64,000 nucleotides of DNA from a virus. The position numbers and the translations under genes were made by a program. Of this stretch, positions 9,604-12,411 are shown piece by piece; positions within the stretch are counted from its first letter, which is position 1, and each line of letters starts with the position of its first letter. The notes below the pieces were generated by a model. It was not told the origin of the DNA and searched no databases. It saw only the letters and a program-made list of their open reading frames with translations. The stretch lies in the IMG/VR virus record IMGVR_UViG_3300021376_000010. One strand, written 5' to 3'.

Positions 9604-9800
9604 TAGTATCCCCTCCAAGTTTTAAATTCGTAGTAAAAGTATTGGTCTACAAGGAAATTGTCTAACGGGGCATTTTCTTCTCGATGTGCCCACTCAAGGC
9701 AAAAATCTTTAATTTTATAATCGTTTAATGAACTGTGACCCCACATTCTAACAAAAGCAGAGGCAGCAAATTGATACCTCTCCTTAGTGTGCGGTGCCAT
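9603..9800 (-). CDS. hypothetical cyanophage protein (start reassigned to ATG 9800)
   Basis: MAPHTKERYQFAASAFVRMW...YFYYEFKTWRGY; the track's upstream extension overlaps ndhP. Confidence 0.65.
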   Translation of the reverse strand: MAPHTKERYQFAASAFVRMWGHSSLNDYKIKDFCLEWAHREENAPLDNFLVDQYFYYEFKTWRGY

Positions 9801-9906
9801 TCCCCTTGTAATCTTTGGAGTCATAATATCCTCCTCGTGTTCCGAAGTAAAGTGTAGATAGCACAAATGGTATTGAAACAAATAGTAATGCTTTTGCTAA
9901 TAACAT
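9784..9906 (-). CDS. ndhP: NDH-1L complex subunit NdhP homolog, 40 aa (not in ORF track)
   Basis: MLLAKALLFVSIPFVLSTLYFGTRGGYYDSKDYKGNGTAH matches the NdhP C-terminal signature FGTxNGFYDxDxYHGNGSAH after one TM helix. Confidence 0.85.
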   Translation of the reverse strand: MLLAKALLFVSIPFVLSTLYFGTRGGYYDSKDYKGNGTAH

Positions 9907-10083: not shown

Positions 10084-11118
10084 CTATCTTACGTGATGTC
10101 CACCAAACATATAACGCATACCGTTCAAAACTTTGACTGCGAAAGTGCCCAGATTGCGTGAATTAAATCTCTCAAAAAGGGCAGTAGTAATGACAGGAGC
10201 GGGTACACCAAGGTCCACAGCGGCAGAAACAGTCCAACGACCCTCACCACTATCGGAAACTCCTCCAGAGAACTGTTTAAGTTGACCATCATTCCGTAGA
10301 ACATCAGCGGTAAGGTCAAGTAACCAACTACCAACAACACTACCCCTACGCCACAACTCAGCCACCTCAGCAACATCAATATCATAGCAATAACTTTCTG
10401 GATCTGCCATTGGGGCAACTTCTGCATCTCCTTCTCTGACATACTGAGCACCTGCATTAGCATTATTAATAATATTAAATCCTTCGGCATATGCTTGCAT
10501 AATACCATATTCAATTCCATTATGAACCATCTTTACAAAATGTCCCGCACCAGGACCACCACAATGCAACCAACCATGCTCTGCAGAGGTTATGTCCGAG
10601 TCAAATTGAGTCCTGGGGGCAGCGTCGATTCCTGGAGAGAGGGCATCAAAAATGCTCGCACAAGTGGCGACCGCAGTATTTCCGCCACCAACCATAAGAC
10701 AGTATCCACGATCCAGACCGTAAACACCACCAGAAGTACCGCAATCAATATATTGGACACCCAACTTTGCCAGACGTTCTGCTCTTTTCCGACTGTCTTT
10801 AAAATTGCTATTGCCATGATCAATAATAATATCACCTTCACTACAATATCGTAGTAACTCATTAATCGTCTCCTCTACTGTTTCTGCAGGAACAACCATC
10901 TGAAAGACCCCTGGTTGCTTATGACCTTCTTTGTTTCTCTTAACTACTTTAACAAGATTTTCAATATCAGTTGTAATTCCATTAACAAATCCCTTTTCAA
11001 AGGCTTCATTTGCTTTTTCATAATTCCTCCGATAACCCCAAACTTCTATGCCTGCTTTCATCATGCGGCGAGACATTCCTTCGCCCATTCTTCCTAATCC
11101 AATTAGTCCTACTTTCAT
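10084..11118 (-). CDS. gnd: 6-phosphogluconate dehydrogenase (decarboxylating)
   Basis: MKVGLIGLGRMG, IDHGNS, DCGTSGG, GAGHFVKMVHNGIEYG, DSGEGRW, FGGH. Confidence 0.95.
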   Translation of the reverse strand: MKVGLIGLGRMGEGMSRRMMKAGIEVWGYRRNYEKANEAFEKGFVNGITTDIENLVKVVKRNKEGHKQPGVFQMVVPAETVEETINELLRYCSEGDIIIDHGNSNFKDSRKRAERLAKLGVQYIDCGTSGGVYGLDRGYCLMVGGGNTAVATCASIFDALSPGIDAAPRTQFDSDITSAEHGWLHCGGPGAGHFVKMVHNGIEYGIMQAYAEGFNIINNANAGAQYVREGDAEVAPMADPESYCYDIDVAEVAELWRRGSVVGSWLLDLTADVLRNDGQLKQFSGGVSDSGEGRWTVSAAVDLGVPAPVITTALFERFNSRNLGTFAVKVLNGMRYMFGGHHVR

Positions 11119-11175
11119 AATTCTCTCCCTTCTACAGAAATCTCCAGTTGCTCCAAAAATTACTATATTTTTCAT
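11119..11175 (-). pseudogene. zwf: N-terminal relic of glucose-6-phosphate dehydrogenase, in frame with gnd
   Basis: MKNIVIFGATGDFCRR matches the G6PDH N-terminal motif IVIFGATGDLxxRKL; only 19 codons remain. Confidence 0.7.
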
Positions 11176-11179
11176 TCGT

Positions 11180-11434
11180 TTACCAATCGTCGTTTTCTTC
11201 GTGATCCCCGTTAAGTTCTCTTAGATAGTCAGTCCACCATTGTGGGTCTTTTTGCATTTTCCAATTTGGCACTTCTTTTCCATGTTCAAAGTACCAATCT
11301 TGTATTGCTTTTTCTATAATATCTTTTGTTTCAATAATCCTCTGTCTCCTCATCAGCGTCTGCATATGCATCCTCCAAGTAAGGTCCGTGTGGTCGTTTG
11401 GCATCTTCTCTGACATACTTTGCCTCAGATACAC
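11180..11434 (-). CDS. hypothetical protein (true start uncertain, possibly near 11335)
   Basis: ORF track; C-terminal part IQDWYFE..VPNWK..DPQWW looks coding; 5' part overlaps the upstream gene. Confidence 0.5.
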   Translation of the reverse strand: MYLRQSMSEKMPNDHTDLTWRMHMQTLMRRQRIIETKDIIEKAIQDWYFEHGKEVPNWKMQKDPQWWTDYLRELNGDHEENDDW

Positions 11435-11522
11435 TTGTAGATAACCATAAAGATAGTTTCATTATTATGTAGATAATTGCTAGAGGCAAAAAACATAAGG
11501 TAAGAATAAGTGCGTGTTTCAT
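11331..11522 (-). CDS. single-TM hypothetical protein, 63 aa
   Basis: ORF track; N-terminal TM, acidic tail; ATGA coupling. Confidence 0.7.
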   Translation of the reverse strand: MKHALILTLCFLPLAIIYIIMKLSLWLSTSVSEAKYVREDAKRPHGPYLEDAYADADEETEDY

Positions 11523-11608
11523 TGTGGGTATGCGTGATTAAGTCCCCAGATAATAAAAAGTCCAATGACCCCAAATATAGTCATTGTACTAAAAAGTAAG
11601 TTTGTCAT
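11519..11608 (-). CDS. NdhQ-like single-TM microprotein, 29 aa (not in ORF track)
   Basis: MTNLLFSTMTIFGVIGLFIIWGLNHAYPQ; resembles the NdhQ C-terminal helix (..GLIWWALHTAY); coupled on both sides (TAATG, ATGA). Confidence 0.5.
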   Translation of the reverse strand: MTNLLFSTMTIFGVIGLFIIWGLNHAYPQ

Positions 11609-11724
11609 TACGAACTACCTCCTTCTTTGATACCGTAAACATATCCAATAATAAGACCACACATAAACACAATAAAAATCAAAATTTGTTTTGTGAGGAA
11701 CTCAATAAGTTCCTGCCATTCCAT
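11608..11724 (-). CDS. single-TM microprotein, 38 aa
   Basis: MEWQELIEFLTKQILIFIVFMCGLIIGYVYGIKEGGSS. Confidence 0.6.
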   Translation of the reverse strand: MEWQELIEFLTKQILIFIVFMCGLIIGYVYGIKEGGSS

Positions 11725-12010
11725 CGTCATCTTCGTCCTCATAAGTAGAGGGTTCCTCAAAAAGTTCATCCATTTTTTGTTGAAGAACTCTGCGTTGCAG
11801 TTGTTCTTCATCTTCTTCTGTAAATCTAATCACAAGTAACGGGTCTCCTGGTTTAACATCGTTCATTTCTGGGTGTTTAACTTTTGGACTTTTCGTATAC
11901 CCATTTTGAGCATTCATAATCATCCAACCTTGTACAATCATTGATAGGGCTATACCAATAAGTATCACCCAAGGGACTAAAAATATTATGGGAGTGTAAT
12001 TTTGAGCCAT
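11702..12010 (-). CDS. DUF2973-like membrane protein (start reassigned to ATG 12010)
   Basis: N-terminal TM then HPEM...PLLVIRF motif as in cyanobacterial DUF2973. Confidence 0.6.
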   Translation of the reverse strand: MAQNYTPIIFLVPWVILIGIALSMIVQGWMIMNAQNGYTKSPKVKHPEMNDVKPGDPLLVIRFTEEDEEQLQRRVLQQKMDELFEEPSTYEDEDDDGMAGTY

Positions 12011-12189
12011 GGTAGTAGGGGTGGAATAACTCCAATAAGCCTTAATAGTCCTTCGGCAAATAAAGCGAGAACTAACCAACCAACGCACATAGAAATAATG
12101 GAAGCATTTCTATTGTGCCTTCGTATAGCAGCATCAATCATCTCCTGGACTTCAGTTCTTGTAATAAATTCTTCTTGCTCATGCATCAT
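11986..12189 (-). CDS. conserved cyanophage membrane protein
   Basis: EVQEMIDAAIRRHNRNASIISM..GW..LALFAEGLLRL. Confidence 0.7.
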   Translation of the reverse strand: MMHEQEEFITRTEVQEMIDAAIRRHNRNASIISMCVGWLVLALFAEGLLRLIGVIPPLLPWLKITLP

Positions 12190-12335
12190 TTTTCATCTCC
12201 AAGAAACTTTGCAAGTGGGTCAACTTTAGTTTTCACTATTGCACAAGCTCTTTTGTAAAACATATTGTTTGTATTGCCAGACTGTTCAAAGATTTCCTTT
12301 ATCTTCACCCAATTGTCGTAGGTGCGTTGATCCAT
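12186..12335 (-). CDS. conserved cyanophage small protein, 49 aa (not in ORF track)
   Basis: MDQRTYDNWVKIKEIFEQSGNTNNMFYKRACAIVKTKVDPLAKFLGDEK. Confidence 0.7.
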   Translation of the reverse strand: MDQRTYDNWVKIKEIFEQSGNTNNMFYKRACAIVKTKVDPLAKFLGDEK

Positions 12336-12370
12336 AGAGTTAAGATTGAATACTATGAATAATACTAGTT

Positions 12371-12411
12371 ATATTACTCAACATCTTCATATAAGAAGTT
12401 TGTGTTGATAC
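12371..12411 (-). promoter_or_regulatory. possible NtcA-type promoter (one mismatch)
   Basis: GTA-TCAACACA-AAC, N21, TAATAT versus consensus GTA-N8-TAC-N22-TAN3T. Confidence 0.35.

Follow-up and report, generated by a model that had tools for sequence, protein, structure and literature searches.

The small subunits NdhP and NdhQ of NDH-1L sandwich NdhD1 on its opposite faces and contact NdhF1 in the cryo-EM structures (PMC6992706, PMC7021789). Both also bind the lipids and carotenoids by which the NdhD1/NdhF1 module is attached to the core (PMC6992706, PMC7021789). About half of NDH-1L is disassembled when NdhP or NdhQ is lost (PMC11794437), and NDH-1MS contains neither of them (PMC11794437, PMC4131877).

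The photosynthesis genes of cyanophages influence how a large part of the primary producers in oceans and lakes behave during infection, and few of these genes have been studied less than those for NDH-1. Those listed in the S-SCSM2R paper (PMC12801897) and in reviews are ndhI, ndhD and ndhP only. Phage ndhP was called uncommon and previously known only from P-TIM68 (PMC12801897), and is reported for P-TIM68 and S-SCSM2R (PMC12801897, PMC10452541). The S-SCSM2R genome was published in 2025 with ndhD and ndhP and without ndhQ (PMC12801897). An earlier sequence-only reading of the present locus knew of no phage ndhQ, and full-text literature searches (NdhQ with NdhP and NdhQ with phage) likewise found none described.

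Here, we analyse a small NdhQ-like gene in the window, a 64,000-nt stretch of DNA from the virus record IMGVR_UViG_3300021376_000010. The window belongs to a T4-like Synechococcus cyanomyovirus, and all of its megablast matches are cyanophages. Metatranscriptome contigs 90–99% identical to 10094–11791 come from lake-water and 'aquatic' samples, and the nearest relatives of the peptide belong to the reservoir and lake phages S-SRM01 and DSL-LC03, so the phage may be of a freshwater or estuarine type.

The locus and its signals

The ndhQ-like gene clusters with gnd and ndhP in the window, and it adjoins petE, ptoX, talC or gnd in the relatives. The features are as follows.

11702..12010, minus strand: 102-aa membrane ORF, two genes upstream of the ndhQ-like gene
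11608..11730, minus strand: 40-aa single-helix ORF, family not recognised; its TAA overlaps the ndhQ-like ATG
11617..11624, minus strand: perfect Shine-Dalgarno sequence AAGGAGGT (ACCTCCTT on the plus strand), 8 nt before the ndhQ-like ATG and inside the end of the preceding ORF
11519..11608, minus strand: ndhQ-like gene, 29 codons with the stop included; one transmembrane helix and a C-terminal W-G-L-x-[NH]-A-Y-P motif
11331..11522, minus strand: 63-aa membrane ORF downstream of the ndhQ-like gene; phrog_2832, E 3.6e-22
10084..11175, minus strand: gnd (6-phosphogluconate dehydrogenase), between the ndhQ-like gene and ndhP
9784..9906, minus strand: phage ndhP, 40 aa, NDH-1L small subunit, 1.6 kb downstream of the ndhQ-like gene

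The 29-aa ORF that the sequence-only reading had placed at 11519–11608 on the minus strand is there, and its start is unambiguous because an in-frame TAG stands two codons 5′ of the ATG. The reading had also proposed translational coupling on both sides, and both overlaps are present: TAATG with the TAA of the upstream 40-aa ORF, and ATGA between the TGA of the ndhQ-like gene and the ATG of the following gene (11331–11522). The 29-residue product consists of three polar residues, a hydrophobic helix of ~20 residues and a W-G-L-N-H-A-Y-P-Q end. Being shorter than 50 aa with a single transmembrane helix, it has the size and topology of NdhQ.

The neighbouring gnd, which shares 80% identity with its S-H9-1 counterpart, is flanked on the minus strand by a run of small overlapping ORFs. 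Its translation probably starts at the internal ATG near 11118, judging from relatives that begin MKVG.IGLG. The ORF at 9784–9906 gives the sole match of the window to the NdhP profile (E 2.7e-26), and the phage NdhP profile matches the PDB NdhP chain 6khi_P (E 7e-10). By these profiles, it encodes a true NdhP. The 40-aa ORF at 11608–11730 has no significant match in Pfam, PHROG or NCBIfam. The 102-aa ORF at 11702–12010 matches phrog_275 and, below threshold, DUF2973 (E 0.006); a further small membrane protein of host type may thus be encoded in the same operon.

In two lake-water RNA libraries, which may contain DNA, contigs of 90–94% identical relatives cover 11399–11791 and 11542–11711 at a depth of 4–7. 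The runs cover 0.05–0.10 of the stretch and have no contig over 9700–10063 (ndhP) or over 11793–12400 except for a trace at 11884–11974, so this coverage is uninformative either way.

Conservation among phages and homology to NdhQ

A tblastn search of 50,697 phage records with the window peptide matched 30 records, all of Synechococcus phages, and a second family member used as the query matched 50 records, mostly other ones. With these two queries, the NdhQ-like ORF is found in at least 80 Synechococcus phage records. In all nine isolate records inspected, the match fills an unannotated gap of ~80 nt between called genes, and overlapping stops and starts recur there. In profile searches, each phage genome that has the gene has it once (E 1e-10 to 1e-14). 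The exact sequences of four such phage peptides, the window's included, are absent from a collection of 15 billion proteins. Gene callers thus miss the ORF, and a conserved functional gene is lost to length cut-offs.

The sequence-only reading had staked its case on the W-x-L-x-x-A-Y motif being conserved in phage homologues. Among the nine tblastn-derived peptides, the motif is [VI]-W-[GS]-[LIV]-x-[NH]-A-Y and its W, A and Y are invariant, so the motif holds. We also scanned IMG/VR with a degenerate DNA pattern for the motif and obtained at least 120 matches. Among the 120 listed, 111 are ORFs of 25–35 aa that end 0–5 residues past the motif, and these comprise 67 distinct peptides. The motif conservation of this set is circular as it was chosen by the motif, but the nine-sequence tblastn set is free of such circularity.

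The remaining 9 of the 120 listed matches were discarded, as they fall inside a large unrelated protein with M-W-G-x-F-N-A-Y-P-D. This viral protein is very large, with frames of >400 to 3,300 aa, and has no relation to the microprotein.

Over 24 codons of the motif-selected IMG/VR ORFs, the dN/dS ratio is ~0.37 in frame and 0.8–1.9 in the shifted frames, and this signal across the helix is not affected by the selection on the motif. The third codon positions are the most variable in the alignment. The ndhQ-like gene is therefore under purifying selection.

Taken singly, the window peptide finds nothing meaningful in Pfam, NCBIfam or PHROGs, and its phmmer search of the PDB misses NdhQ and returns only transhydrogenase helices at E >6. 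When 177,635 PDB sequences are searched to E 10 with a profile of the nine tblastn-derived peptides, only three match, and all three are NdhQ of the T. elongatus NDH-1L: 6khi_Q (E 0.006), 6l7o_Q (0.017) and 6hum_Q (0.31). In this search, phage residues 4–27 align to residues 21–44 of the 45-residue chain Q. Homology to chain Q is thus reached via the phage profile, while the single peptide alone falls short of it. The C-terminal motif of NdhQ is present in the peptide as W21, L23, A26 and Y27.

Host genomes were reached with phage ndhP as a handle and then searched whole with the phage NdhQ-like profile. It matches 69 of 81 Prochlorococcus, Synechococcus and Cyanobium genomes at E 2e-5 to 5e-11, usually once in each. 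The gene of these picocyanobacterial hosts has 35–45 aa, with M-E-x-x-x-S-D-S-T, a helix and F-I-V-W-G-L-x-N-A-Y-P, and UniRef labels a copy of the Prochlorococcus MIT 9303 type (ABM78680.1) as 'NADH dehydrogenase subunit NdhQ'. Searched against the PDB, the picocyanobacterial set matches NdhQ over its full length (E 2e-4, chain Q residues 10–44), the other matches being two PsbX helices at E >0.7.

In other cyanobacteria across the phylum, the phage profile finds one gene of 45–47 aa per genome, starting M-S-D-L-N-R-G-I-M-K-F. This canonical set matches 6khi_Q at E 1.2e-25, which identifies it at the sequence level as NdhQ, and corresponds in length to Norf6/NdhQ of Synechocystis with 46 aa (PMC5126843). 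The W, A and Y are invariant in all three sets, namely the tblastn-derived phage, host and canonical NdhQ sequences.

Some marine Synechococcus have a second, diverged NdhQ-like microprotein of 42–44 aa, e.g. WP_255453091.1, annotated as 'hypothetical protein'. It was the second match in 5 of the 81 genomes searched and was found in one further genome. This paralogue ends W-G-[LV]-x-[NS]-A-Y-P, has a basic N-terminus and shows none of the G −8, G −5 and F −3 that the phage and host NdhQ have in common (positions relative to Trp). It might serve another NDH-1 isoform.

Direct comparison of profiles by hhalign gives the phage form a probability of 98.7% (E 2e-16) with host NdhQ and 96.9% (E 1.6e-10) with canonical NdhQ. 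When every stop-to-stop frame of the 64-kb window was searched with an NdhQ HMM built from host genomes only, this ORF scored E 1.4e-10 and the runner-up 1.1. Together with the PDB profile search, these results bear out the likeness to the NdhQ helix noticed in the sequence-only reading, and the helix quoted there (..LGFIAGLIWWALHTAY) agrees with the PDB chain. We consider it very probable that the ORF is both a real gene and an NdhQ homologue. In these alignments, the phage peptide is closest to the NdhQ form of the host lineage. The phage gene appears to be derived from picocyanobacterial ndhQ, with ~25 alignable residues too few to resolve the direction or the number of transfers.

Linkage to ndhP and a probable role in NDH-1L

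Among the 112 NdhQ-like loci listed, 60 have ndhP within the fetched few kb, and it is on the same strand in all 60. It immediately follows the NdhQ-like gene in 12 of these 60 listed loci and lies <700 nt upstream of it in 26. Genome-wide profile searches, with positive controls working for both NdhP and NdhQ, show that the two genes also occur apart. Of the ten genomes with the NdhQ-like gene (nine complete isolates and the window), five lack ndhP: S-SRM01, DSL-LC03, S-CAM4, ACG-2014i and S-RIM12. Conversely, Syn9, P-SSM2, S-RIM2, S-RIM8, ACG-2014d and P-TIM68 carry ndhP (that of P-TIM68 being taken from the literature) with no NdhQ-like match. The pairing with ndhP claimed at the outset thus stands as same-strand linkage but not as an obligate pair, because each gene occurs without the other.

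In S-CAM4, ACG-2014i and S-RIM12, the NdhQ-like gene lies one small gene downstream of petE (plastocyanin), and so has other electron-transport neighbours than in the window.

By tblastn, ndhP is in 374 phage records, and almost all copies are 'hypothetical' or unannotated. Phage ndhP is far commoner than the literature states. Many phages carry both NdhD1 clamps, given these 374 records for ndhP and at least 80 for the NdhQ-like gene, and at least one carries NdhD1 itself. This is S-SCSM2R, whose NdhD (137035–138540) is 79% identical to host NdhD1, and which has ndhP and an unannotated NdhQ-like ORF adjoining talC. By homology, S-SCSM2R encodes every protein of the NdhD1 sandwich.

Conserved in phages and found among other photosynthetic electron transport genes, the ndhQ-like gene has the marks of a host-derived AMG. 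It is a further host-derived gene of photosynthetic electron transport in cyanophages. During infection, the 29-residue peptide would insert into the thylakoid membrane and settle in the NdhQ site of NdhD1, be it the host protein or, where the phage encodes one, the phage protein, alongside phage NdhP. The assembled NDH-1L pool would then be maintained or raised. With NADPH from the product of gnd, which lies between the two genes, NDH-1L would go on supplying ATP through cyclic electron flow and respiration.

We infer that the protein is expressed, that it binds NDH-1L and that its effect is stabilising rather than inhibitory. Occupation of the NdhQ site with NDH-1L kept assembled is suggested because NdhP and NdhQ hold the NdhD1/NdhF1 module and their loss disassembles NDH-1L. 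Such support also fits the NADPH-producing neighbour gnd. That the peptide works by binding and stabilising NDH-1L is likely in our judgement.

A complex of the phage peptide with marine Synechococcus NdhD1 was predicted with alignments given for both chains. For the NdhD1 chosen, the bit score is 796 with T. elongatus NdhD1 and 299 with NdhD3. The ipSAE is 0.59 versus 0.00 for the best of three controls, a verdict of 'weak support' that may reflect memory of a like complex already solved and is read with the limit that a partner of <30 residues is shorter than any in the calibration set. Of 80 solved complexes, 58 reach the mark for this verdict, and of 110 mismatched pairs, 2 do; passing scores at 0.60 or under come from only 7 of those 80 and from both passing mismatches. 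The prediction runs agree in 100% of contacts with a partner pLDDT of 80–82, and no interface was reported. The model thus lends weak support to docking of the peptide at the NdhQ site of NdhD1.

Other explanations have to be weighed against this one. With a length of only 29 codons and an exact sequence missing from the 15-billion-protein collection, the ORF could be taken for a chance frame in an intergenic or overlapping region. This is hardly conceivable, since the frame is conserved in dozens of divergent phages with more synonymous than non-synonymous change, has a perfect Shine-Dalgarno sequence and stop/start overlaps, has a host homologue named NdhQ and is recovered by a host-only HMM (E 1.4e-10). 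The conservation data refute the chance frame as far as computation allows. A peptide of NdhQ ancestry might instead now serve a different partner, e.g. another NdhD paralogue, PTOX or plastocyanin-related machinery. The genes of S-CAM4, ACG-2014i and S-RIM12, placed one gene downstream of petE in genomes without ndhP, would suit such a change, and the diverged paralogue of some marine Synechococcus suggests that several complexes may make use of the fold. However, the residues in common with host NdhQ span the helix (G −8, G −5, F −3 and W) and take in all of the C-terminal motif, the paralogue scores ~10–20 bits below the primary host NdhQ with the phage profile, and the prediction with NdhD1 passed its controls, though weakly. 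We regard a changed partner as improbable.

The peptide could also be an NdhQ-derived decoy or inhibitor that fills the NdhQ site without stabilising or poisons assembly, and thereby loosens NDH-1L or redirects NDH-1M modules. The missing invariant arm of canonical NdhQ and the five complete phages with an NdhQ-like gene but no ndhP speak for it. But picocyanobacterial host NdhQ is already without half of the arm, which argues that this lineage can do without the arm. The tight same-strand linkage to an intact ndhP, and the NdhD1-type gene that accompanies the NdhQ-like gene in S-SCSM2R, point to building a complex rather than breaking it, and the cyanophage photosynthesis genes otherwise described are copies that support the host function (PMC12801897, PMC10452541). 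A decoy is thus quite improbable. The reading that we prefer, a phage gene derived from ndhQ that supports NDH-1L, has a good probability as a whole. The phage probably props up NDH-1L during infection.

These results offer a testable hypothesis, namely that the NDH-1L pool is actively sustained or enlarged by the phages. A bolder version, in line with the bias towards NDH-1L suggested in the sequence-only reading, is that NdhQ and NdhP, joined by NdhD1 in S-SCSM2R, change the complex-I isoform that the infected cell assembles, which we think rather unlikely. If true, the shared NDH-1M cores would be held in NDH-1L, which serves cyclic flow and respiration, and the NDH-1MS forms that take up CO2 would lose out. 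The virus would thereby switch the cell from concentrating carbon to supplying ATP.

Comparison with the known NdhQ and NdhP forms

Canonical NdhQ has an invariant N-terminal arm, D-x-x-R-G-I-M-K-F-x-G-A-D, which is absent from all phage forms. The sequence-only reading had noted that the arm is missing, and this is so for the phage, but it is partly a host trait, as picocyanobacterial NdhQ (35–45 aa) is already shortened. The host form begins at the position of Met10 in the T. elongatus chain and the canonical D-x-N-R-G-I start is gone; therefore, the first half of the arm has been lost in the host lineage. The arm defines the canonical form and not the whole NdhQ family, because the hosts too lack its first half. 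From the aligned starts, the shortening began in the host lineage and the remainder of the arm was lost in the phage form. An armless peptide might bind differently or not at all.

Relative to the picocyanobacterial NdhQ of Prochlorococcus and of marine and freshwater Synechococcus/Cyanobium, the phage form is ~10 residues shorter. The two share the same G −8, G −5, F −3 and W in the helix, the host form ending W-G-L-x-N-A-Y-P, and their identity is ~60% over the 18 residues ending at Pro. The phage form lacks the acidic and polar lead-in M-E-x-x-x-S-D-S-T of the host and has only three residues before the helix.

Relative to canonical NdhQ of 45–46 aa (6KHI, 6L7O, 6HUM and Norf6 of Synechocystis 6803), the helix and the W-x-L-x-x-A-Y end align residue by residue. 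The canonical form has its arm as D-L-N-R-G-I-M-K-F-x-G-A-D, whereas the phage form has none. The phage end is W-G-L with a terminal Pro, and most canonical forms have W-A-L and A-x-x instead.

The closest parallel within the phages is cyanophage ndhP. Like it, the ndhQ-like gene is an auxiliary gene for a host-derived one-helix subunit of NDH-1L; the two share a gene cluster and a strand, and annotation usually overlooks them. Unlike the NdhQ-like protein, phage NdhP is the other subunit, on the opposite face of NdhD1, and keeps its full length with the C-terminal tail. It is also the more widespread of the two, with 374 phage records versus at least 80 for the NdhQ-like gene.
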